Assembly: GCA_019752535.1 (NCBI GenBank)
Contig: JAIEMA010000014.1
Span: 42,036 to 106,035, forward strand
DNA length: 64,000 nt
Source: Bacteriovoracaceae bacterium
Lineage (GTDB): Bacteria > Bdellovibrionota > Bacteriovoracia > Bacteriovoracales > Bacteriovoracaceae
Reading direction: 5' to 3'
Below the pieces are notes generated by a model, which searched no databases, was not told where the DNA came from, and saw only the letters and a program-made list of their open reading frames with translations. Every line of letters begins with the position of its first letter. Position 1 is the first letter of the stretch. Both the position numbers and the translations under genes were made by a program. Below, piece by piece: positions 53,347-63,817 of the stretch.

Positions 53347-54849
53347 TTAATTCGTGGTGATATGAGATTGAGAGGGAGTGTTCTTGAAAAATTTTGCCGT
53401 TATTCTTACTCGCACTTCAAAATGCGAATCCAATAAGCAGATCAAAACATACAACAAATAAATAAAATTACGCTTTGATCGCAATCTTGAAATGACTTGA
53501 AAAACCCATTCTAGTGGAATGAGTGCCATGAAAGGAATAATCCACATCATGCCAAAGCCACGAAGCAAGTTTTTTTCAAGAGAGATGCCAACGAGAAAAA
53601 GAATAAGCACTGCTGATAAAAAATGTCCCATTCTCACTCTATCGAGTGTGAACTCTGCAAATTTTTTTCGAGTTGCAGGAGCGTATGCCAAAACAAGGAG
53701 AACTACCCCAACAAGAGCTAAAGCATAAAAAGATTTTCGCTTAATAAAATTAGCAAAAAATAAGTAAATCCCACTGAGTGACCAACCATGGCCAAAAATA
53801 TCTAAGTCAATGTGGTAAATGAAAACAAAAAAACAACCTATTAGACCAAGCGATGTGTATTTCAGAAACTGCTGTCGATACCAAACAGTCTTATCGTTCA
53901 TTTGCCACATCGTTAGCATCAAAAGACCCAGAGGAAAGAGCGGGAAAAAGTGGTAATTCAGCAAGGTTCCAAAGTAGCAAAGCATGCCATACATCAGCCC
54001 TGCTCGATAGGTTGCGCTCTTAGCAGACCACAACAATCCCCAAACCCAGACAATAGGAAAACAAGTTAACAAAACGCCAAACGGGTCTTTTTGCAAAAGC
54101 AATGTCCACGACCAAGAAGAAACTAAGGCAAAAATTCCTAAAATTGAAAGTCTTCTAGAAAAAAAGAATCTTAAGACTCCATAAAAACTCAGTAAATATA
54201 GAACCGCTCCCATCACGTAAAAGTGCATGCACCAAGCAACATACATGAGATGTGGAAATCGCTTAAATGGAAAATAATTTACAGAGAGAAAATTCCAATA
54301 TTGCTGTGAAACCTTCTCATCTGGATCAATTAATATTTTGAGAGAATCCAAATTATCAAAATAGGGAAAAAATGGAATAGAAACCAAAACCATAAGGATG
54401 GTTAAAAACAATACCGTCTTTTCAAAATTATCGAGGTATCTGTACTCGCCAAATTGAGTCGACACGGATTCTTCGATAATTTTTCCACGAGTAGGCCAGG
54501 AGTAGAACAGCCCGAGAAAAATCCAAAATCCCCAAAAGAAATGCTTGGTCCAACCATCGGGAAAGATCAGAACAAGATTGAAAAACATGACTGTGAAAGT
54601 GCTTCCTACGAGAAGTCGATAAACAATACGATCAATCGAGGAATTAGCCCTGAAGTAGATTTTGAAGCGATGATCGATCTCTTTGCCCAAGAGGTACCAT
54701 TGACTCGCTATAAAGAGCATATAGAGCATCATCAAAATGGCTTGTGAGAAAAGGTTCAACTCTAGGGTTTTTTGAATCCAGACAGGGATAAGCAAAAAAG
54801 AAAAGTAGATAACTACCCGATTAAAGAAGAACTTTGATTTTTCCAGCAA
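53347..54849 (-). CDS. Polytopic integral membrane protein (about 12-14 TM), function unknown
   Basis: 500-aa ORF, almost entirely hydrophobic helices rich in F/W/Y/L. TTG start at 54849 without an obvious SD, so the start is uncertain. Divergent from fliD. Confidence 0.6.
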   Translation of the reverse strand: MLEKSKFFFNRVVIYFSFLLIPVWIQKTLELNLFSQAILMMLYMLFIASQWYLLGKEIDHRFKIYFRANSSIDRIVYRLLVGSTFTVMFFNLVLIFPDGWTKHFFWGFWIFLGLFYSWPTRGKIIEESVSTQFGEYRYLDNFEKTVLFLTILMVLVSIPFFPYFDNLDSLKILIDPDEKVSQQYWNFLSVNYFPFKRFPHLMYVAWCMHFYVMGAVLYLLSFYGVLRFFFSRRLSILGIFALVSSWSWTLLLQKDPFGVLLTCFPIVWVWGLLWSAKSATYRAGLMYGMLCYFGTLLNYHFFPLFPLGLLMLTMWQMNDKTVWYRQQFLKYTSLGLIGCFFVFIYHIDLDIFGHGWSLSGIYLFFANFIKRKSFYALALVGVVLLVLAYAPATRKKFAEFTLDRVRMGHFLSAVLILFLVGISLEKNLLRGFGMMWIIPFMALIPLEWVFQVISRLRSKRNFIYLLYVLICLLDSHFEVRVRITAKFFKNTPSQSHITTN

Positions 54850-54867: not shown

Positions 54868-54894
54868 TAAAGAAACCAGGGTAATCTCCGACTA
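54868..54894 (+). promoter_or_regulatory. Candidate sigma28 (FliA)-type promoter for fliD
   Basis: TAAAGaaa-N11-tCCGActA compared with the consensus TAAAGTTT-N11-GCCGATAA. 5/8 match in the -10 element. About 200 nt upstream of the fliD start. Confidence 0.3.
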
Positions 54895-55090
54895 GAACAG
54901 TGGGACTTTACTAAAAACAAAGTCTCACCCAAGACCTATTGAAATACGGGGGTGGAGTGTTCACCCATCCCCCTATTTCTCTTCTATGCTATCTAATTTC
55001 TGCCCACTTGCACACTGGCCAGAGAGATATAAAATAAAGATAGGGGCAGTAGGCCCATTTTCAGTTACCCCACGACATCAGGAGGATGAA

Positions 55091-56479
55091 TTGGGGATAT
55101 CCTTTGGCTCAATCAATTCAGGCCTTCCTAAAGATATCGTTCAGCAATTGGTGAACGCTGAGAAAATTCCTATCCAACAGATGGAAGCTCGCAAAGCTAA
55201 AATTTCAAACAAACAAGCCCTTGTCTCCCAACTCACTAAATTAGTCGAAAACATGAAGGGCGAAATTATTAAAAACAAGGGTGCCCGCTCATTAAGAGAG
55301 ATGAAGGTCAATGGTGGCGCAGACAATATAGCGATAACCGCAGATAAAAACATTGCTGAGCCTGGAAAGTATCAGCTTGAAGTTCTCTCCCTCGCACAAA
55401 AGTCTTCAGCTATATCAAACGGTGTTGAGGACAAAGATAAAACCTACATTGGTGTCGGCTACATTCGTGCCGTTATGCCTGATGGAGAAGAAAAAGAAAT
55501 CTACATCGATGAAGAGCATGCAAGCCTTACAGGTGTTGCCAAACTCATCAATGAGCAATCTGATACATTAGGCATGAGGGCCAATGTTATTAATGATGGC
55601 TCAGGATCTGATGAACCATGGAAGATGGTTCTCTCAATGAGTGACACTGGGGATGGAGCTAAGGCTGAGTTCCCTTACTTATATCTTGTAGATGGTGAAG
55701 TAGACATTTTTCTTGAAGGAGAACGTCCAGCTCAAGATGCAAAAATCAAATTAGATGGATTTGAAATTGAAGTTCCATCGAATAAAGTAACTGATCTTAT
55801 TCCAGGCGTAACAATTGATCTTAAGAAAGCTAAGCCCGGTGAAGAAATCAGTTTTGAAGTGACTGAAGATATTCAAGCTATTGGCGGAAAGATGACGTCA
55901 TTAGTAGATAACATCAATGCCGTTTTAAAATTTATCAAAGAACAGAATACATTAAGTGAAAAGTCAGATACCTCACAAACGTTGGGTGGAGATCTTACAC
56001 TTCAAACCATTGAATCACGTCTTCGTTCGACCATTTTTACGCCGATAATGACAGATAAAGGGCCAATGAGAATTGGTGATCTGGGTATTACTTATCAACG
56101 TGAAGGCTTCTTAAAATTTGATCAAGCCAAATTCGAATCAGTCTTAGCCGGTGATTACAAGAGAGTGGCCCAAGTTCTTAATGGTATCTATGGGCCAGAG
56201 GGCAAGACAGACGGTTTCATTGATAAACTAGAGCAGACCGCTCAACAACTTTTACAGCAGCCCAATGGCGCACTCGTCACAAGGCAGAGAGGCCTTAAGA
56301 GCAATATTGACCAAATTGATCGTCAAATTGCGACTCGCCAAAGAATGATTGATCAAAAAGAAGAAATACTTAAGCAGCGTTTCGCAAGATTGGAAGAAAC
56401 AATATCAAAGATTCAGGGTCAGGGTGCAGGACTTGCCGGGTTAGCGCAGATGGGTAATCCAGTGACACAATTAGGTTGA
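55091..56479 (+). CDS. fliD: Flagellar filament cap protein FliD (HAP2)
   Basis: In-frame TTG 55091 with GGAGGA 5 nt upstream gives LGISFGSINSGLPKDIVQQLVNAEKIPIQQMEARKAKISNKQALVSQL, the canonical FliD N-terminus. C-terminal coiled coil ...IDRQIATRQRMIDQKEEILKQRFARLEETISKIQ. The ORF-track extension to 54986 is not FliD-like. Confidence 0.85.
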   Translation: MGISFGSINSGLPKDIVQQLVNAEKIPIQQMEARKAKISNKQALVSQLTKLVENMKGEIIKNKGARSLREMKVNGGADNIAITADKNIAEPGKYQLEVLSLAQKSSAISNGVEDKDKTYIGVGYIRAVMPDGEEKEIYIDEEHASLTGVAKLINEQSDTLGMRANVINDGSGSDEPWKMVLSMSDTGDGAKAEFPYLYLVDGEVDIFLEGERPAQDAKIKLDGFEIEVPSNKVTDLIPGVTIDLKKAKPGEEISFEVTEDIQAIGGKMTSLVDNINAVLKFIKEQNTLSEKSDTSQTLGGDLTLQTIESRLRSTIFTPIMTDKGPMRIGDLGITYQREGFLKFDQAKFESVLAGDYKRVAQVLNGIYGPEGKTDGFIDKLEQTAQQLLQQPNGALVTRQRGLKSNIDQIDRQIATRQRMIDQKEEILKQRFARLEETISKIQGQGAGLAGLAQMGNPVTQLG

Positions 56480-56511: not shown

Positions 56512-56919
56512 ATGAGTTACGGATTGGGTCAGTATAAAAAAACTTCAGTTGAAACTGCCAGCAGAGAGCAGATTCTTCTTATGCTTTATCAAGCAGCGAT
56601 TAAAAACTGCAAAAAAGCCATCGAGGCCATTGATCAAAAAAACATCGCCAAGAAAGGCGAGTACATTGGAAAAATGCAGGACATTATTGTCGAACTTTCA
56701 AACAGTCTAGATTTTGAAGTCGGTGGTGACGTGGCTAAAGAGCTTGATTCTCTCTATGACTACCTTATGTTCTCGAGCACACAAGCCAATATAAAAATTG
56801 AAAAACAACCCTTAGAGGCATGCCTCAAAGTATTAAACACACTTTATGATGGTTGGACAGAAGCAATCAAGAGCCTCAAGACAAATCCACAACAACAACA
56901 AAAAGCTGCCAATGAGTGA
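56512..56919 (+). CDS. fliS: Flagellar export chaperone FliS
   Basis: 135 aa. YKKTSVETASREQILLMLYQAAIKNCKKA...IGKMQDIIVELSNSLDFEVGGDVAKELDSLYDYL is a typical FliS four-helix bundle sequence. Confidence 0.9.
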   Translation: MSYGLGQYKKTSVETASREQILLMLYQAAIKNCKKAIEAIDQKNIAKKGEYIGKMQDIIVELSNSLDFEVGGDVAKELDSLYDYLMFSSTQANIKIEKQPLEACLKVLNTLYDGWTEAIKSLKTNPQQQQKAANE

Positions 56920-57232
56920 AAAGAAAATCGAGACCAGCCATTTAACATGGCGGGTTCTACGCTTAACTGAAAAAGCGATAACTCTTCTTGAATCTGGCAG
57001 GGTTGATGATGCTATCGCTGTTGTTGACAATAGAGAGAGGGCCCTCAATTTGTTGGCCACTCGAGCTGATATTACAGTCGCAGATGTGACGATCCTAAAC
57101 GAAATAGACAAGCTCAATGAAATTCTTCTCAGCAAGTTCATTGAATCTAAAGAACAAACTCAGAAGGATATCGCTTCAACTCATAAAAATGGTACCGCCC
57201 ACCGCTCGTATCAGTCCAATCAAGTCAAGTAA
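56912..57232 (+). CDS. Small helical protein in the fliT position (putative flagellar chaperone)
   Basis: 106 aa from ATG 56912, overlapping the fliS stop by 8 nt. MSEKKIETSHLTWRVLRLTEKAITLLESGRVDDAIAVVDNRERALNLL... Assignment rests on position and helical character only. Confidence 0.4.
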   Translation: MSEKKIETSHLTWRVLRLTEKAITLLESGRVDDAIAVVDNRERALNLLATRADITVADVTILNEIDKLNEILLSKFIESKEQTQKDIASTHKNGTAHRSYQSNQVK

Positions 57233-57313
57233 TCTCGTCGAATGTTTGACAGGGGGGTAACCCCCGTGAGGAAATAAGAGGACCAACTCAAATCCTTAAG
57301 GAAGAGGATTTCC

Positions 57314-57922
57314 ATGGATTCTACCTCTAATTTCTTGCGTCTAACTGAAGCTAAAACCAAAGAGCTTGTTCCCGTTTTAAATGGGCTCCCCCTGCATTCA
57401 CTTCACAATCCTCGCAGAGAAGCCGAAGTTTTTGCCAACAATCATTTAGCCCAGCTCTCAAAAACACCAAACGTGCTCATCTTGGGCTTAGGTTTCGCCT
57501 ATCACATTGAAGAAATGATCAAAGTGATTCAGCTTAGACACAAGGACTATCAGATAGGCGTAATTGAACCTCATAAGGAAGTTTTTCGCCTTTGGGAATC
57601 TTATCAAAAAAAGAGCAAGGGAATTGAAATCTATTGCTCGAAGAATGTTGATGAACTTTATGATAACGAAGATCTTTGTCGTTTTTTATTAAAAAAGCCT
57701 GTCGTCATCATCCATCAACCCTCATATGACTCTTCAAAAGAATTTTTTAAAAATTTTTTATGCAGGAAGGCTTCACAAAACATTGAAGATTTAAAAATCA
57801 ATCAAACTTGGTGGGACGAATGGTTGGCCACTCAGCCAAACACACCTCAAGCGTTACTTGAATCAAGCTCGCCAACATCTAATTGGTATAAGGCATTTTG
57901 GGAGCTGAAACATGCTGAATAA
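57314..57922 (+). CDS. Hypothetical protein resembling the N-terminal module of Maf (motility-associated factor/DUF115) proteins
   Basis: 202 aa. ...NGLPLHSLHNPRREAEVFANNHL...PNVLILGLGFAYHIEEMIKV follows the pattern (LHS.y.P..EAe ... vvv.G.GlGYhi) that I associate with Maf N-termini. The central MptE-like domain is absent. Confidence 0.5.
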   Translation: MDSTSNFLRLTEAKTKELVPVLNGLPLHSLHNPRREAEVFANNHLAQLSKTPNVLILGLGFAYHIEEMIKVIQLRHKDYQIGVIEPHKEVFRLWESYQKKSKGIEIYCSKNVDELYDNEDLCRFLLKKPVVIIHQPSYDSSKEFFKNFLCRKASQNIEDLKINQTWWDEWLATQPNTPQALLESSSPTSNWYKAFWELKHAE

Positions 57923-59183
57923 TGTAAAAAATCTTCACATCGTACTCAATAAAGATGCTGCAGAAATAATGGCAGACATTGATCCATTACTATTAAAGGT
58001 GAAGTATCCTGGTGAGCACACCGCTATTATTAGAGAAGAATATCTAGATGAAATGAAGGGGCTTAATCTCTTTCATGAAATCATCACTCTCGATGTTAAC
58101 TTTCTACAAAGATGTTCTTTTTCACCTTTACTTGGCGATGCTTCAGCATTCAAGTTTATGTGCCAAAAACTCAAGCCACTTACCAATGAAAAGTGGTCGA
58201 GGATTTTTAACATTAAGAGCTGCCCACTGAATTCGTCCTTCTCTACATTGTTTACAGCTAACACTCGAATTGGAGCCTATAGCAATGAAGGAAAATTCGT
58301 TTGTCATGAATCCCCTCTAAAGCTGAATTTAATTTCATCAAATTGGGGCATGGAGAACTCCTACCTGAGAAAGGTTTTAAATCAAAAATCTCTTCATCAA
58401 TTGGATATGGATAAAATCGAGAAAGAGATTTCACGAATTGCAGACCTTAAGACAAAAACGAATGATAAATTCATGAAGGGTGCGGTTGTTGCCGTTAATA
58501 TTAGTGAATGCAGTGAGAGTGTTTTAAACAATTTGAAATTCATGAATCAATTGTTTTCTCTTGTTCCAATGAACGAATTCTCTAAAATGACACTTGAATC
58601 CTTTGTAAACGTGGCCAATCCGATTGTCGACTCGATTAACCCTTTTTATTTTGACCTTGTTGTTAACAATCAAAGCAGAAAAAATTATTTTCTTAATAAC
58701 GAAATCAATATTGAAGGGCAAACGACAGAGGAGCTCACTGAAGTCATCTCAGAGATTCTTCCTAGCAATTTTACAAAGTGGTCTACTCTTTCATTCTTAT
58801 TTGATTACTTAGGAAATCCAAAACTCGCCCTCTCATGTGAGAAAATATTTACTAAATACGACAAAAAATCTGTCCAACCATTTTTATACAACGAAATCTT
58901 GCAACTCAAAGAATTTGCTAAAATTCTTCTTGAGGGCATCAGAAGAAATGTTAAGGGAGATATTTCATATCTCGAAAACTATTGGGCAACAAAACCCAGT
59001 ACTTTGAGTTATGTCAGCTGCATTGAGCTTTCAATGAAATCTCCAATCAAGCCTCTTTTGTCAGGTGAATCAGATTTACTTGCAATTAAGTTACGCATGA
59101 AGAATTTGAATTATTTTTATGAAAGAGTTTATCGAGCCTGCACAATCGATATACCAAAATCAGATCTGGCACTGACACTATGA
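57912..59183 (+). CDS. Hypothetical protein, degenerate GT-B/heptosyltransferase (GT9)-like N-domain plus helical C-domain
   Basis: 423 aa, overlapping the previous gene by 11 nt. NLHIVLNKDAAEIMADIDPLLLKVKYPGEHTAIIREEYLDEM...WSRIFNIKSCPLNSSFSTLFTANTRIGAY is co-linear with the GT9 N-terminal Rossmann pattern, but conserved motifs are degenerate. Confidence 0.5.
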   Translation: MLNNVKNLHIVLNKDAAEIMADIDPLLLKVKYPGEHTAIIREEYLDEMKGLNLFHEIITLDVNFLQRCSFSPLLGDASAFKFMCQKLKPLTNEKWSRIFNIKSCPLNSSFSTLFTANTRIGAYSNEGKFVCHESPLKLNLISSNWGMENSYLRKVLNQKSLHQLDMDKIEKEISRIADLKTKTNDKFMKGAVVAVNISECSESVLNNLKFMNQLFSLVPMNEFSKMTLESFVNVANPIVDSINPFYFDLVVNNQSRKNYFLNNEINIEGQTTEELTEVISEILPSNFTKWSTLSFLFDYLGNPKLALSCEKIFTKYDKKSVQPFLYNEILQLKEFAKILLEGIRRNVKGDISYLENYWATKPSTLSYVSCIELSMKSPIKPLLSGESDLLAIKLRMKNLNYFYERVYRACTIDIPKSDLALTL

Positions 59184-60511
59184 GCCTTAAAGTTTTATTC
59201 GTTTCACCAGACCACCAAAAACTGTTTGTAGATTTATCTATAAGTAGTGTTTTTGTAAAAAGCGAACATCCTCAACTGACAATTGATGTATATATCGACG
59301 TTGATCATGTTCCTTCTTGGTGGGTAAAACCAGGGGAGTGGTTTCAACTTATTCACTCATTGGATGAATGTTCAGAAAAGTATGATCTGATCATTCAAGC
59401 TGCTCCAAGTGAAGAAATGGCAAAAGCTCTTCTAAGTATTCAGTGCGAAAACCGCGCCGGTGTTTCCATTGTCCCTAATCTTCACGTTCAGGGACGATGG
59501 GCACAAACTCTTCTCTCCCAGATGGGGAGCAGAAGATTTGCACCATTTACTCCCTATGATCTTTTCAACCATGTTCTTCTGGGACGAACGACTCTTGATC
59601 TCAAAGAGAAAAAGATAAACACTACAGGGAGCTGGATTGTTGACCTCGATTCACTGCCTCAAAAATCAAGGAATTGGGGCGAGAAGCTCATTGCACACCT
59701 CTCAAGTCTTTACCCTAATCGAGTTTTAGATAAAATTCCGCCCACACCAACGAGTACCCCTATCTTTGGCTATGTTGGATCCAATACTTGCTATGCCAGC
59801 TGGATCTCAAGCCACGGATCTCATGTTGCGCTCATTATCGATGGGCCCCTTGAACCTCTGAGTGCGCCGGCCAACAGCAATTCATGGATAATGCCTCAAG
59901 ATAGCCTTTTGGATGTTTCAAAAATTCACAGCCTTTTTGCTTCTAGTGATCTGAACTTTCAAGGAGCCTATCGCTTAACGAATGAGTATTTAGGCGGACA
60001 GATACTAGACACCAAGAACGTAATCAATGATTCTGAATTTATTTTCGAAAAACTCCACTACGTAGTTTTTAATTACTTAAACGATCTTCTTGAAATTGAT
60101 ATTCCTATTCCTGAAATCACTGCCGCTTGCTGCTTAAAGATCAAGGGAATCAGATCTGTTTTTGATAAAATCAGCCATCTTAATTTGTTTGGGATTAAAT
60201 TCCTACAGGAATTTATAGATAAAACAAATGGCATCAACCCCAAGAGTGCAGACGTTAATGAGATCATTGAAAAGATCCATGAGATTGATCAACTAACAAT
60301 TAAAACGATGTCAGTCTACAGGGAAATGGACCTGCTCAGAAACTGGATTTATTACTCTAAAGCCGGAGCACGGGGTGATAATATATATGAAATCTCAAAG
60401 AGTTTGATTCTCATTTTTAATGAAATCAATCAGGCGCTTGGCGCCTATAGTGAATTAATTGATACAATTGTAAAAAAACATTCGAAAGAAGAAAACACTG
60501 TTGGTCCATGA
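59180..60511 (+). CDS. Hypothetical protein, second degenerate GT9-like domain plus helical C-domain
   Basis: 443 aa, ATGA overlap with the previous gene. LKVLFVSPDHQKLFVDLSISSVFVKSEHPQLTIDVYIDVDHVPSWW...YDLIIQAAPSEEMAKALLSIQCENRAGV parallels the WaaC/WaaF-type N-domain layout. Confidence 0.5.
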   Translation: MSLKVLFVSPDHQKLFVDLSISSVFVKSEHPQLTIDVYIDVDHVPSWWVKPGEWFQLIHSLDECSEKYDLIIQAAPSEEMAKALLSIQCENRAGVSIVPNLHVQGRWAQTLLSQMGSRRFAPFTPYDLFNHVLLGRTTLDLKEKKINTTGSWIVDLDSLPQKSRNWGEKLIAHLSSLYPNRVLDKIPPTPTSTPIFGYVGSNTCYASWISSHGSHVALIIDGPLEPLSAPANSNSWIMPQDSLLDVSKIHSLFASSDLNFQGAYRLTNEYLGGQILDTKNVINDSEFIFEKLHYVVFNYLNDLLEIDIPIPEITAACCLKIKGIRSVFDKISHLNLFGIKFLQEFIDKTNGINPKSADVNEIIEKIHEIDQLTIKTMSVYREMDLLRNWIYYSKAGARGDNIYEISKSLILIFNEINQALGAYSELIDTIVKKHSKEENTVGP

Positions 60512-60529
60512 TGGACCTAAGGATGAGTT

Positions 60530-60964
60530 ATGGATAAAACACTACATATTCAACAAGCAGAAATGAATTCTCTTATTTTCAATACACTTTTTGAGACAGT
60601 CACAGATTTAGGTAAGAAAGTAGACTCAATGCGATTGCTAAGTCCTATGTCTATGACAGATGGAGCAGTTATTGGATTAATTGATGACACCCGAAAGTTT
60701 GTAGTTTTTTTAAAATACGCTAATGAGTATATGCAGAAAACGATTGGGAGAAGCTCAATTCAAGAGGAAATGCTGCGCATTAAGCTACATCTTCTTTCTG
60801 TTTTAAGGGCCTTGTCTGATTATGTAAAACTAAACGATAAGCTCGCAATCCATGACTTGATCACTGAAGAGCTGCGGGATAATCTTACAATGTGGAAAAT
60901 CAACGTCATACCCTTACTGAGAATTCAGAGAAACGACCACTTGTCTGGATTGAACCCACTCTAA
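60530..60964 (+). CDS. Hypothetical small helical protein
   Basis: 144-aa ORF with AAGGA-type SD upstream. No TM and no recognisable motif. Confidence 0.45.
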   Translation: MDKTLHIQQAEMNSLIFNTLFETVTDLGKKVDSMRLLSPMSMTDGAVIGLIDDTRKFVVFLKYANEYMQKTIGRSSIQEEMLRIKLHLLSVLRALSDYVKLNDKLAIHDLITEELRDNLTMWKINVIPLLRIQRNDHLSGLNPL

Positions 60965-62562
60965 TTGAATTCATTCCACTAGAAGATCAAAAAAACTTCA
61001 CGAACCCAAAAAAAGAATCATCCTCTTGGAGAATCGAGGTCGAGCAAGATCAAATAGTCTTGTATGATCGGCGCAGACCTCATCTCAAATTACCCAAAGT
61101 AGGATCGAATCTTAGGCTAATGACTGATTCAATCGCCTCAACACATCAAGAAATTACTTCAACCTCCGATTATTGGGAGGATCGACTCTTAGTAGACCAT
61201 GCGAATTTGGCCTCTGAATTATTTAGGGAAAACACTAAAGAAAATGACTTAGACATTTTTTTTAATTTAATGTCCTCAACAATTAGTCTAAAAAGTGGCC
61301 TTGAATCATTTTTCAAAATAAAGAGATTCAAAGAGTTTAAGGTTGGGGAGCTGCTTGTACATCAGAAAGGGGAGTCGCAAGCATGGCAGATTGCATCGGG
61401 AGCCACATCGGAAGAACATACGCATTCACTTAATCTGGATTTATTTAATTCCCTTTATACAGCTGTAAAAAAATCTAAGAGCGGTCAATTTACGACCAGT
61501 CAATCAAAATGGAACTGGCTCCCTTTCGGTGGAAGCTTTATAGCTGAAACTTTTAGTTTTAGAAGATTTAATGCTATCTGGATTATTTCAAGAGAAGAAT
61601 TTCTCCCCTGTAGCCCTGAAGAAATTAATCAATTCAAATCATTGGCCATGCTCTGTAGTCACTGGCTTGAAAGTCTTGTTGAGCTGGAATTTAGTGACCT
61701 TAGGCTAGCGGAGATCATGTGGGTTCTGGAAAGATGTCCGCTGCCCATCATTCTTCAAGACGCAAACGGAAATTCTGTTTTCAGCAATGCCGCCTACCCC
61801 AAGGACGGCATCATAGAGAGTCTTACATGGATTAACCTTGGAAAAAATTATGAATTAGGGCTTGGGCAGAGAGATGATTGGGATACAACTCAAATAGATG
61901 TATTTCATAAGCACAAGATTGCACTATTAGGAGATCTTTTTAATACATTGAGACACGAACTTTCAAATCCACTCTTTGGTTTGGGTTTAGCATGTGACTT
62001 ATTACTTTTAGCTGATGGACCCGAAGACTCAAAAATTATGCTACTTGAAATTAAGAAGAATATTCAGAGATCACAGCAAATCATTCAAAATCTCTCAAAA
62101 CTTTATTCTACTGATGAGTCGACCAATGTGTGCAATCTTGAAAATGTGATCAATGAAGCACTTACTTTAGCTAAATCTGAACTCAGACAAATCAAGAAGA
62201 CTGTTCAGATTCATAGAAATCAGACTGTAGAAATAAAACCATTATTACTCATACAAATCCTATTTAACCTACTCATCAACAGTGCCCAGGCCATGCATGA
62301 GCAAAAATCTAATGGCGAGATCTCTATTACAACTACCGAAGATGCTGAAAATGTATTTATAAGATTTGAAGATAATGGACCCGGGCTACCCCAGTTGATC
62401 AAGGAAAATATTTTTCGACCGTTTCATACAACAAAAAACCAAGGCAACGGACTTGGTTTGGCATTATCAAGAGATCTTGCGATAAAAAATGGGGGCGACC
62501 TCAGCTTTATTGATCAAGCTCATGGAGCTGCCTTTTTATTGACTCTAAAGAAGGCACAATGA
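60892..62562 (+). CDS. Soluble sensor histidine kinase (unknown N-terminal sensor, HisKA, HATPase_c)
   Basis: H-box FNTLRHELSNPLFGL, N-box LINSAQAM, G1 DNGPGL, G2 GNGLGLALS. No TM segments. The ORF-track start is GTG 60892 (73-nt overlap with the upstream ORF); TTG 61060 and ATG 61120 are alternatives. Confidence 0.85.
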   Translation: MENQRHTLTENSEKRPLVWIEPTLIEFIPLEDQKNFTNPKKESSSWRIEVEQDQIVLYDRRRPHLKLPKVGSNLRLMTDSIASTHQEITSTSDYWEDRLLVDHANLASELFRENTKENDLDIFFNLMSSTISLKSGLESFFKIKRFKEFKVGELLVHQKGESQAWQIASGATSEEHTHSLNLDLFNSLYTAVKKSKSGQFTTSQSKWNWLPFGGSFIAETFSFRRFNAIWIISREEFLPCSPEEINQFKSLAMLCSHWLESLVELEFSDLRLAEIMWVLERCPLPIILQDANGNSVFSNAAYPKDGIIESLTWINLGKNYELGLGQRDDWDTTQIDVFHKHKIALLGDLFNTLRHELSNPLFGLGLACDLLLLADGPEDSKIMLLEIKKNIQRSQQIIQNLSKLYSTDESTNVCNLENVINEALTLAKSELRQIKKTVQIHRNQTVEIKPLLLIQILFNLLINSAQAMHEQKSNGEISITTTEDAENVFIRFEDNGPGLPQLIKENIFRPFHTTKNQGNGLGLALSRDLAIKNGGDLSFIDQAHGAAFLLTLKKAQ

Positions 62563-62927
62563 AAAGTATCTTAATAATAGAGGATGAAGTGCTCATTGCT
62601 CAGTCATTGAAGAAACTTCTCGAAAAGAGAGGCCACAAGGTTCAAACGACAGAATCTGGGATTGAGGCCATTAAATATATTAGTGAAACAAATTTCGATA
62701 GAATCGTCTGTGATCTCATGCTTCAAGACATCTCTGGATTTGATGTGCTTGAGGAATCAAGAAAAAAATATTCTCAAGATCAAATCGGAAAAATATTCAT
62801 TATTATGACGGCCTATAATTCTCCACAAGTACTCGAAAAGGCCTCTGAATACGAATGTGAAATTTTAAATAAGCCATTTGAAGATCTAAAATTGGCGATG
62901 GATAAAATCGAAGGTAGCCATATATGA
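62559..62927 (+). CDS. Single-domain (CheY-like) response regulator
   Basis: 122 aa. ILIIEDE..., phospho-acceptor context RIVCDLMLQDISGFDV, ...IIMTAY..., LNKPF. No output domain. ATGA overlaps at both ends. Confidence 0.85.
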   Translation: MKSILIIEDEVLIAQSLKKLLEKRGHKVQTTESGIEAIKYISETNFDRIVCDLMLQDISGFDVLEESRKKYSQDQIGKIFIIMTAYNSPQVLEKASEYECEILNKPFEDLKLAMDKIEGSHI

Positions 62928-63817
62928 AATCGATAACAAGTGTAGGCATAACTCTTAAGCCACATGCCACCAATGAATTTCTTAGTGTTCTTCCTCATCT
63001 ATGCCAATGGCTTAGCAGAAGAAAAAAAGAAATAATTTTCAGGCAACATGACCAAGAGAGAGTGGTTAAATTACTTCCAAAGTCTGAAGGAAAATTTGAT
63101 TTTCTTACTGACGAGAAATTTTTTAAATTGCCAGACATTATGATTTCACTCGGTGGTGATGGCACCATGATTGGAGTATGTAGAAAAATTTCACCCAAAA
63201 TTCCAATCTTAGGTATTAATTTGGGACGACTGGGTTTTATTACACCTTATTCCAAGAATGAATTCTTTGATCATCTCGGTCCTATCATCGATGGAAAATT
63301 TAAGACCATTAAACAACCACTGTACCAAGTTACTGTTTTGAGACGTGGAAAAACTATATTTCAACAACCTTTCTTTAATGACGCCGTTGTAGCGAAGAAT
63401 GAAATTGCTCGCATGATCCATCTTCGTGTCGAATCCAATGAAGAGCACATCTATAATCTCGCTGCAGATGGCTTGATTGTAAGCTCCACAATGGGATCAA
63501 CGGCTTATTCGCTTGCGGCCGGCGGACCTCTAGTCCACCCTGAGGTAGCGGCTTTAATATTAGCTCCGATCTGTCCGCACTCCTTAACTTATCGCCCTCT
63601 CGTGATCCCACCAAAATCAAAAATTAGTCTTAAAGTATTACCTCCCTACAATACTGTGAATTTGACATTAGACGGACAAGTTGTTTTTCCGATTGAAGAG
63701 CACGACAATATTCTTATAAATAAGAAGCCAGCGAAGTATGTTTCATTAATTGAAAATGAAGCAAGATCATTTTATGAAACATTGAAAGAGAAATTTGTTC
63801 ATGGAAGAAGATCATAG
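62924..63817 (+). CDS. nadK: NAD+ kinase
   Basis: 297 aa. IMISLGGDGTM, NLGRLGFIT and SSTMGSTAYSLAAGGPLVHP are the NadK motifs. Confidence 0.9.
   Translation: MKSITSVGITLKPHATNEFLSVLPHLCQWLSRRKKEIIFRQHDQERVVKLLPKSEGKFDFLTDEKFFKLPDIMISLGGDGTMIGVCRKISPKIPILGINLGRLGFITPYSKNEFFDHLGPIIDGKFKTIKQPLYQVTVLRRGKTIFQQPFFNDAVVAKNEIARMIHLRVESNEEHIYNLAADGLIVSSTMGSTAYSLAAGGPLVHPEVAALILAPICPHSLTYRPLVIPPKSKISLKVLPPYNTVNLTLDGQVVFPIEEHDNILINKKPAKYVSLIENEARSFYETLKEKFVHGRRS

Follow-up and report, generated by a model that had tools for sequence, protein, structure and literature searches.

A conserved four-gene module behind fliD and fliS in Bacteriovoracaceae: a putative non-catalytic derivative of a GT9 glycosylation system

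Results

The gene chain downstream of fliD and fliS

In this study we describe four open reading frames (ORFs) that follow late flagellar genes in a stretch of 64,000 nucleotides (nt) from a Bacteriovoracaceae metagenome-assembled genome (contig JAIEMA010000014.1, positions 42,036 to 106,035 of the forward strand). This whole stretch is called the window here, and positions given without a locus name refer to it. The four ORFs lie on the + strand: ORF1 at 57314-57922 (202 amino acids (aa)), ORF2 at 57912-59183 (423 aa), ORF3 at 59180-60511 (443 aa) and ORF4 at 60530-60964 (144 aa). ORF1 and ORF2 overlap by 11 nt (ORF2 ATG at 57912, ORF1 TAA at 57920-57922), ORF2 and ORF3 share the ATGA at 59180-59183, and an 18-nt gap separates ORF3 from ORF4. 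They are preceded on the same strand by the filament cap gene fliD (54986..56479; FliD_N and FliD_C matches), the flagellin export chaperone gene fliS (56512..56919; Pfam FliS E=9.8e-39, TIGR00208 above cutoff) and a FliT-like gene of 106 aa (56912..57232). The latter most likely starts at the ATG at 56912, which overlaps the fliS stop, and its homologues in relatives (104-135 aa) have weak or faint matches to PF05400 FliT. ORF4 is followed, again on the + strand, by a histidine kinase gene (60892..62562; HisKA and HATPase_c), a CheY-like single-domain response regulator gene (62559..62927; Response_reg E=5.3e-18) and the housekeeping NAD kinase gene nadK (62924..63817; NAD_kinase and NAD_kinase_C), with which the chain ends; the kinase/receiver and receiver/nadK junctions are ATGA overlaps as well. 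No intrinsic terminator was found between fliT and ORF1 or within the gene chain.

An earlier reading made from the sequence alone (the sequence-only reading) had drawn attention to these four ORFs, and its account of their sizes, overlaps and gap was borne out, as was the order with fliD and fliS before and kinase, receiver and nadK after them, for which Pfam and NCBIfam confirm the identities. It had also assigned the four ORFs to no confidently recognizable family. Indeed, ORF2-4 have no significant match in Pfam or NCBIfam, ORF1 has only a sub-threshold match to Maf_flag10_N, and the NCBI locus tags of ORF1-3 (K2P81_04885 to K2P81_04895) all read 'hypothetical protein'. Searches of PDB sequences with ORF2, ORF3 and ORF4 gave nothing significant either.

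Each ORF has 20-35 homologous clusters of near-constant length and 34-61% identity. The ratios of non-synonymous to synonymous substitution rates (dN/dS) are 0.018 for ORF1, 0.026 for ORF2, 0.031 for ORF3 and 0.052 for ORF4, calculated between the loci L006 and L009, the sole orthologous pair with unsaturated synonymous divergence. Given these clusters of constant length and dN/dS values of 0.02-0.05, ORF1-4 are real genes under strong purifying selection. Transmembrane-like segments are found neither in ORF1-4 nor in the kinase, hence the system they form is predicted to be cytoplasmic.

ORF1 is probably related to the N-terminal domain of Maf proteins

ORF1 encodes a standalone protein whose best Pfam match is Maf_flag10_N (PF20157), with 13 bits at a cutoff of 23.5. 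This family is the best Pfam match, always sub-threshold (top score 20.9 bits), in 24 of 27 ORF1-family members. It also ranks first in all ten remote homologues that were sampled (22-27 bits), which match the ORF1-family profile at about E=1e-30, and one of these ten passes the gathering cutoff with 27.0 bits. An exhaustive search with the family profile returned 644 cluster representatives at E<=1e-3, the top 150 of which are all standalone proteins of 138-253 aa. In ORF1 the match covers residues 29-90 against profile positions 83-148, and it spans the HS..NP..EA motif as well as the LGLGFGYH loop. Over the 150 representatives (median identity 30%) twelve residues are at least 93% conserved: H28, S29, P33, E36, G58, G60, H64, E85, P86, P129, H134 and S137. 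Conservation of this degree at such low overall identity suggests that the fixed residues mark a functional site. Weak methyltransferase-type matches accompany Maf_flag10_N in the ORF1 family. This fits a published account in which the Maf N-domain is a degenerate Rossmann fold that carries methyltransferase-like motifs and has no known function (PMC11339370).

In a profile search of the PDB the ORF1 family matched neither Maf nor anything else, and a PDB-sequence search with ORF1 itself came back empty. On the basis of the profile matches ORF1 is likely to be homologous to the Maf N-terminal domain. The sequence-only reading had proposed this likeness to the N-terminal module of Maf/DUF115 proteins together with the absence of the MptE-like core, and both proposals hold: the catalytic MAF_flag10/MptE-like domain (PF01973) has no match in ORF1-4 at E<=1, and none in 67 family members at E<=10.

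ORF2 and ORF3 are predicted GT-B proteins with a helical extension

Models of ORF2 and ORF3 were built with AlphaFold2 from family alignments. They reach a mean predicted local distance difference test (pLDDT) of 86 and a predicted template modelling score (pTM) of 0.87 for ORF2, and values of 87 and 0.85 for ORF3. In both models two alpha/beta lobes precede a helical part of about 150 residues. In ORF2 these are an N-lobe (aa 1-146; 57912-58349, +), a reduced C-lobe (aa 191-270; 58482-58721, +) and a helical bundle (aa 271-423; 58722-59180, +). In ORF3 they are an N-lobe (aa 1-135; 59180-59584, +), a reduced C-lobe (aa 151-284; 59630-60031, +) and a crossover helix with helical bundle (aa 285-436; 60032-60487, +). 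Foldseek against the PDB placed E. coli WaaC first for ORF3 (E=1.2e-4, probability 1.0, ~333 columns), followed by 3tov, a member of glycosyltransferase family 9 (GT9) from Veillonella, the protein O-heptosyltransferase TibC, and WaaF. For ORF2 it placed 3tov_B first (E=1.2e-4), then WaaC, WaaF and other GT-B proteins. For both proteins the top GT9 matches have E of about 1e-4 and probability 1.0, and they extend over ~330-350 columns with modest template modelling scores of 0.25-0.50. According to the models, ORF2 and ORF3 thus have a GT-B fold with two Rossmann-like lobes. The sequence-only reading had described each as beginning with the N-terminal Rossmann half of a GT9 enzyme and ending in a helical domain of about 180 aa. 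The kinship to GT9 stands, since GT9 enzymes are the best Foldseek matches, but both GT-B lobes are present, the second one reduced, and the helical part is shorter, at about 150 aa.

In sequence comparisons the GT9 relation of the window proteins is faint. Neither ORF2 nor ORF3 nor any of 40 family members matches PF01075 or the NCBIfam heptosyltransferase models, and hhalign alignments of the ORF2 and ORF3 families to four E. coli GT9 enzymes are not significant, with the best local alignments nevertheless falling on the co-linear N-lobe. Considering the modest template modelling scores and the insignificant hhalign results, structure and E. coli profiles alone would establish no more than a fold-level relation. 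A profile of the ORF3 bundle found nothing significant among PDB sequences. Paralogy of ORF2 and ORF3 was considered and is undetectable at the profile level (probability 1.8%), both being GT9-like by fold.

A chain of the plant NDH-PSI supercomplex (9grx_1, 7f9o_6) also appears among the GT9-like Foldseek matches, with E=8.8e-4 for ORF2. This chain might represent a further structural subunit that is GT9-like but non-catalytic.

Low-GC relatives carry a Glyco_transf_9 protein in the same locus

We checked the genomic context of five remote ORF1-family members (L016, L017, L018, L019 and L020). The contig of L020 ends within the gene after the ORF1 homologue. The other four loci (29-33% GC) cover the region 3' of it, and all show the same locus: FliD, FliS and a FliT-like protein are followed by the ORF1 homologue, a protein of 525-574 aa, an ORF of 42-58 aa, a Glyco_transf_9 protein of 542-574 aa, a DUF8042 protein of 154-205 aa, a histidine kinase, a response regulator and NadK. 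The proteins in the ORF3 slot of all four match Glyco_transf_9 (PF01075). The one from L016 does so with E=1.1e-19 over profile positions 2-238 of 247, and it matches heptosyltransferase models with E=1.9e-15. However, these motif-intact relatives stay far below all lipopolysaccharide (LPS) heptosyltransferase equivalog cutoffs (57 vs 185 bits).

Aligned to the ORF3 family by hhalign, the L016 GT9 protein gave a probability of 97.6% and E=4.8e-12 over 375 columns that include the whole bundle, and it finds the window by tblastn with E=1.8e-10. The N-terminal part of ORF2 is homologous to the 525-574-aa proteins that hold its slot in L016-L019: its N-lobe aligns to the 532-aa protein with 93% and E=3e-7, and the L016 counterpart of ORF2 has a weak match to heptosyltransferase I (E=2e-4, profile 1-279 of 320). 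Because hhalign and tblastn link them to L016 proteins with GT9 signatures, ORF2 and ORF3 can both be placed as descendants of GT9. The pseudo-glycosyltransferase character that had been suggested for them is strengthened by the fact that their positional orthologues in relatives include true Glyco_transf_9 proteins. The source genome is not alone in having such genes. All related loci that were sampled contain the module, of which the four-gene arrangement is a reduced form.

Two further features are seen in these relatives. A CxxC-x5/6-C-x4-CH cluster stands right after the C-lobe of the GT9 orthologues (L016 12402-14045, L017 2970-4598, L018 8713-10437, L019 11385-13055), at a position that recalls the four-Cys iron finger of TibC; the L018 orthologue has a weak match to an Aah/TibC model over the region of the cluster (E=0.0044). 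Between the two large genes lies the tiny ORF (L016 12271-12399, L017 2839-2973, L018 8556-8732, L019 11260-11388), whose sequences in L016-L018 finish in ...ETL(L/F)L.S.IEEE. The window lacks such an ORF, its ORF2 and ORF3 being joined by the ATGA overlap.

The catalytic apparatus appears to be lost in the ORF3 family

Key residues were mapped in an alignment that bridges the ORF3 family, via the GT9 orthologues of L016-L018, to WaaC, WaaF and WaaQ of E. coli; L019 was checked separately. The catalytic-base dyad (G12-D13 in WaaC; TibC equivalent D110) is preserved as R-(I/L/F)-G-D in L016-L019, whereas the ORF3 family has x-K there, with an invariant Lys14, and the position is not conserved in the ORF2 family. 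The donor motif D261-(S/T)-x-x-x-H266 reads DSxxxH in the GT9 orthologues and (N/Q/D)xxxx(S/A) in the ORF3 family. The C-lobe of the ORF3 family is shortened by about 45-60 alignment columns, which correspond roughly to WaaC 205-250, and hhalign shows the same gaps. The Cys cluster is confined to the GT9 orthologues and absent from the ORF3 family. What is retained is WaaC K192-x-W, as R/K-x-W. In ORF2-type proteins the GT9 motifs are missing in both clades, and the C-lobe is further reduced in the clade of the window. The sequence-only reading had noted degenerate GT9 motifs in both proteins, and this is confirmed.

The pattern of conservation is unusual as well. In GT-B enzymes the donor-binding lobe is usually the conserved one. 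Here the C-lobe is the least conserved part, the reverse of that pattern: invariant columns amount to 3-4% in the C-lobes and to 14-37% in the N-lobes and bundles of both families, and between L006 and L009 the C-lobe has the highest dN of all regions. At a depth where FliD is ~60% identical, full-length identities among the GT9 orthologues, within their own clade, amount to 37-41%, whereas between a GT9 orthologue and ORF3 at the same depth only the bundle aligns (~26% identical). Judging from this comparison, the two lobes were restructured on the branch that leads to the window clade. With the catalytic residues lost, it is unlikely that ORF1-4 catalyse a modification in the source genome. 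The module is no Maf system and probably no functional GT9.

ORF4, the kinase and the receiver

The ORF4 family aligns to the 200-205-aa proteins of L016-L018 by hhalign with 98.2% and E=5.4e-14, over the C-terminal 50 residues only (LHLLSVLRAL...HDLITEELRDNLT.WKI). Precomputed matches assign PF26154 DUF8042 to these proteins and to the 154-aa protein of L019, some with PF27299 TP0873_N in addition; our local Pfam scan found no match for the L016 protein with precomputed PF26154 and PF27299, and the models may be missing there. With 144 aa against 200-205 aa in its counterparts, ORF4 lacks the N-terminal TP0873_N-like part and is a shortened DUF8042 protein of helical type. Its family profile had no meaningful match in the PDB. 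The gene of TP0873 itself is presumably a neighbour of fliD in Treponema.

The kinase is of a cytoplasmic type, and its ~330 N-terminal residues (60892-61900 region) have no domain match. Several starts are possible for it: a GTG at 60892, which gives an overlap of 73 nt with ORF4, is followed in frame by ATGs at 61120 and 61270, and gene calls in relatives vary by ~100 codons. The kinase call overlaps the ORF4 homologue in L016-L019 and in one further relative contig. In the response regulator (62559..62927) the Pfam scan found no output domain.

A promoter-like block and a leader precede ORF1

The spacer between fliT and ORF1 measures 81 nt in the window versus 1-20 nt in L016, L017 and L019. 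It contains a promoter-like block (57245..57276, +) that reads TTTGACA, ~13 variable nt and then CGTGAGGAAATA, with TTGAC(A) at 57246-57251 and TG-N3-AAAT at 57267-57275. Across 11 loci of 29-60% GC both TTGAC and TG-N3-AAAT are invariant, and in six loci an exact search found the pattern once per locus. Directly 5' of the ORF1 start lies an 18-nt leader/ribosome-binding-site element, ATCCTTAAGGAAGAGGAT (57292..57309, +), with an inverted repeat ATCCT/AGGAT and with GGA both in the loop and in the Shine-Dalgarno region. The exact 18-mer occurs once in each of 12 Bacteriovoracia loci, and once in the window; L018 carries a related leader, CCTTAAGGACGAGG. Rfam holds no family for the spacer or leader, and the fold energy of the spacer is not better than that of shuffles (z=-1.3). 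We infer a predicted internal promoter and a regulated leader for ORF1-4.

Regulation of this leader by CsrA was considered and found to be unsupported: the window has no csrA gene, and nothing similar to the leader was found in front of flagellin genes in relatives. A scan for the sigma-54 consensus stayed at chance level, with nothing near the module. Sigma-28-like matches in the window are likewise at chance number; one is sensibly placed upstream of fliD (54868..54894, +; TAAAG-N14-TCCGACTA, 3 mismatches, weak), and similar TAAG/TCAAG-N15-CCGA motifs stand upstream of flagellin genes in L001 and L011.

Discussion

A non-catalytic complex as the favoured explanation

We propose that ORF1-4 represent a reduced and catalytically degenerate version of a cytoplasmic module that is conserved after fliD-fliS-fliT in this predatory group. 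The fuller form, as it occurs in the low-GC relatives, comprises the Maf-N-like protein, the motif-less GT9-like protein, the tiny ORF, the motif-intact GT9 protein with its bundle and Cys cluster, and the DUF8042 protein; by analogy with GtfA/GtfB it might be a protein-glycosylating enzyme with non-catalytic substrate-binding partners. In the window clade ORF3 has lost the catalytic base, the donor motif, the Cys cluster and a part of its donor lobe, with its N-lobe and above all its helical bundle kept under strong purifying selection. Because the motifs were lost while N-lobe and bundle stay under such selection, ORF1-4 might now bind or escort their former client as a non-enzymatic complex, with the conserved N-lobe and bundle still binding to it. 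This client would most plausibly be flagellin or another late flagellar export substrate, and the state of the complex might be read by the translationally coupled cytoplasmic kinase and the CheY-like receiver. The former enzyme, ORF3, would then be a second inactive GT-B protein, comparable to Asp1. Homology, fold, motif loss, selection and synteny are results of the analysis, whereas the assembly of a complex, the nature of its client and any connection with the kinase belong to the proposal.

For this overall reading, a non-catalytic binding or escort complex derived from a GT9 glycosylation system of the flagellar locus, we estimate a probability of about 50%. The structural and evolutionary part of the model is very probably correct, whereas a signalling role of the module of any kind is unlikely. 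Going further, one might speculate that the fuller form is a previously undescribed type of flagellar glycosylation, and that in Bacteriovoracaceae it was turned into a non-catalytic sensor or escort that reports late export to the kinase and receiver, a pseudoenzyme-based assembly checkpoint with its own promoter and leader; this extended version is unlikely.

Several points weigh against the proposed complex. The GT9 activity of the relatives and its acceptor are putative. The residue mapping was made by sequence alignment and predicted secondary structure rather than by superposition of coordinates. The link between the module and flagellin is drawn from two sources, its position and the Maf-N homology of ORF1, and whether the client is flagellar at all is an evenly balanced question. 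The window contains no sugar-nucleotide biosynthesis genes, and neither for the bundles nor for ORF4 could a resemblance to FliS, flagellin, the Maf C-domain or a solved structure be detected. The sequence-only reading had asked for a test of neighbourhood conservation, and the module does keep its position after fliDST in relatives. However, MutS2, LepB, a penicillin-binding protein, FtsJ, Nth, a suhB-like inositol phosphatase, NadK and RecN are equally syntenic. Since the order of these housekeeping genes is just as conserved in every relative found, synteny is uninformative on a flagellar role, which the position leaves unproven. Finally, the conserved promoter-like block and the unique leader in front of ORF1 might make the module independent of fliDST read-through in the window clade.

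Alternative explanations

Some of these points feed an alternative in which the module is not flagellar but serves the kinase and receiver in an accessory or sensory capacity, or belongs to another cytoplasmic process, in a frozen gene order. It would account for a macro-synteny that takes in unrelated housekeeping genes on both sides, for the promoter-like block and leader that ORF1 has of its own, and for a kinase gene that, in the sampled loci, either overlaps the ORF4 homologue or lies directly beside it, and that runs into nadK; the bundles and ORF4 also have no link in fold or sequence to flagellar chaperones. On the other hand, according to current descriptions the Maf N-domain occurs in flagellin glycosyltransferases only, and the ORF4 counterpart matches a Pfam family that bears the name of TP0873, presumably a fliD neighbour in Treponema. 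In relatives, genes for a flagellin and a PilZ protein are found a few genes further downstream, and the short gap between fliT and the ORF1 homologue in L016, L017 and L019 points to co-transcription with fliDST there. We consider a non-flagellar module improbable.

A second alternative is the one put forward in the sequence-only reading, that the module glycosylates flagellin or the sheath; ORF3, alone or with ORF2, would then still be active through a non-canonical site. The GT-B fold is retained with high model confidence, the equivalent of WaaC K192 in R/K-x-W is conserved in ORF3, and polar residues of its N-lobe (D36, R92, R106, Q109 and D127) as well as E168 are invariant. Moreover, the C-lobe is under purifying selection between L006 and L009 (dN/dS 0.03-0.06), and the domain family of ORF1 is otherwise found in flagellin glycosyltransferases. 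Yet an invariant Lys occupies the position of the catalytic Asp, DSxxxH is gone, the ~45-60 missing columns belong to the nucleotide-binding lobe that motif-intact orthologues have, the C-lobe is the least conserved part, contrary to typical GT-B enzymes, and 40 family members show no Pfam or NCBIfam glycosyltransferase signature. An active enzyme is thus quite unlikely.

Least probable of all is that ORF1 is an active small S-adenosylmethionine-dependent methyltransferase or nucleotide-binding enzyme acting on flagellin, with ORF2-4 as a substrate-presenting scaffold: its G-x-G loop with the acidic E85 at the end of the next strand, the polar constellation fixed across 150 representatives at median 30% identity, weak matches to PCMT, Methyltransf_3, Methyltransf_25 and PRMT5, and the flagellin methylation reported alongside Maf systems in Shewanella and Aeromonas stand against methyltransferase matches that are far sub-threshold (E>=0.02) and always weaker than the Maf_N match, and against a Maf N-domain that has itself been described as a degenerate Rossmann fold of unknown function (PMC11339370).

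Relation to known systems

The proposed non-catalytic complex can be compared with several systems. With GT9 enzymes (WaaC/WaaF, PF01075; TibC/AAH), ORF2 and ORF3 have in common the two-lobe GT-B fold, for which these enzymes are the best structural matches, and the co-linear layout of the N-lobe; ORF3 also keeps the equivalent of K192-x-W, and in relatives the proteins at the orthologous position belong to PF01075 proper and have four clustered Cys residues placed comparably to the TibC iron finger. In contrast to GT9 enzymes, however, ORF2 and ORF3 give no PF01075 signal, ORF3 has Lys for the catalytic Asp, no DSxxxH and only part of the donor lobe, and both proteins bear a helical bundle of ~150 aa that no GT9 structure has. 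Maf nonulosonic-acid transferases resemble the module in the N-terminal degenerate Rossmann domain to which ORF1 appears to be related, in the flagellar locus, and in a parallel logic of N-domain, glycosyltransferase-type domain and C-terminal helical bundle. They differ in that the central MAF_flag10/MptE-like (Cst-II-like) catalytic domain is absent from the window module, whose glycosyltransferase-type part is GT-B/GT9-derived and sits on separate proteins, with bundles that have no detectable similarity to anything solved. In addition, no genes of the CMP-nonulosonate pathway were seen in the window.

A functional parallel might be the streptococcal accessory Sec system, in which a dedicated export substrate is bound by two GT-B proteins devoid of catalytic activity, GtfB as the inactive substrate-binding subunit and Asp1 as an escort of the substrate (10.1101/219105). 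Like GtfA and GtfB, the L016-L019 loci pair a motif-intact GT-B enzyme with an adjacent, paralogous GT-B protein that has no catalytic motifs. Like GtfB and Asp1, the GT-B proteins of the window are maintained (dN/dS 0.026-0.031) without catalytic or donor residues, and their genes lie beside those of a dedicated export substrate and its chaperones. Nevertheless, the window family is GT9-derived and not GT4-like, it has helical bundles and no extended beta-sheet domain, the window clade appears to have no active partner in the locus, and client binding is putative here.

FlmG of Caulobacter follows the same concept of a cytoplasmic, modular and flagellin-specific glycosylation encoded with flagellar genes (PMC7591256). 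Unlike FlmG, the window module has no detected tetratricopeptide repeat domain and no sequence relationship to it was found; it is spread over four proteins, with a degenerate enzyme part. FlmG itself is composed of a substrate-binding domain and a glycosyltransferase domain. At present, flagellin glycosylation is ascribed chiefly to enzymes of the Maf and FlmG types, and otherwise to a few lineage-specific transferases. If its role is flagellar, the conserved module described here, derived from GT9 and with a Maf-N-like partner next to fliDST, would be another glycosylation architecture.

What is new in this analysis is that low-GC relatives have a bona fide Glyco_transf_9 protein in the ORF3 slot of the same locus. 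The window clade might therefore be regarded as a natural experiment in which an enzyme lost its catalytic apparatus while it and all its partners are still under strong purifying selection, and the motif-intact and degenerate forms offer a natural contrast for non-catalytic roles such as client binding, chaperoning or signalling. The module also gives a first functional context to three unannotated families: the ORF1 family with its 644 representatives, the bundle-bearing GT9-like proteins of the ORF2/ORF3 type, and DUF8042. A search of the literature on TP0873, on Bdellovibrio heptosyltransferase and on Bdellovibrio flagellin glycosylation found no study of this locus in the library searched.

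Further features of the window and of related loci

The fliD gene as listed encodes 497 aa, compared with 461-474 aa in its orthologues (alignment over 462 aa). Since it is ~35 codons longer, the true start probably lies ~35 codons 3' of the listed ATG (54986-55090). The window contains neither a flagellin gene nor a second GT9 gene. Divergent from fliD, a 500-aa polytopic membrane protein with at least 11 transmembrane-like segments is encoded on the - strand (53347..54849). It has the same position in all lineages, is 45-83% identical and has no Pfam or NCBIfam match; in relatives a conserved ORF of 59-87 aa stands beside it. This protein may act as a partner in the membrane for the flagellar locus or the sheath, its membership in the module being unproven.

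The region 2921-46382, mostly on the - strand, carries envelope and housekeeping machinery, including an M10 protease, UvrA, a POTRA/Omp85 protein beside TamB, a type IV pilus secretin, a T2SSE ATPase, a BatD/VWA operon and an NFACT-like protein. In two of the related loci, a sigma-54 activator AAA+ protein of 303-304 aa is encoded a few genes upstream of fliD (L016 3675-4589 and L020 4-915, both - strand). It has no receiver or DNA-binding domain call; it replaces nth in L016 and adjoins nth in L020.

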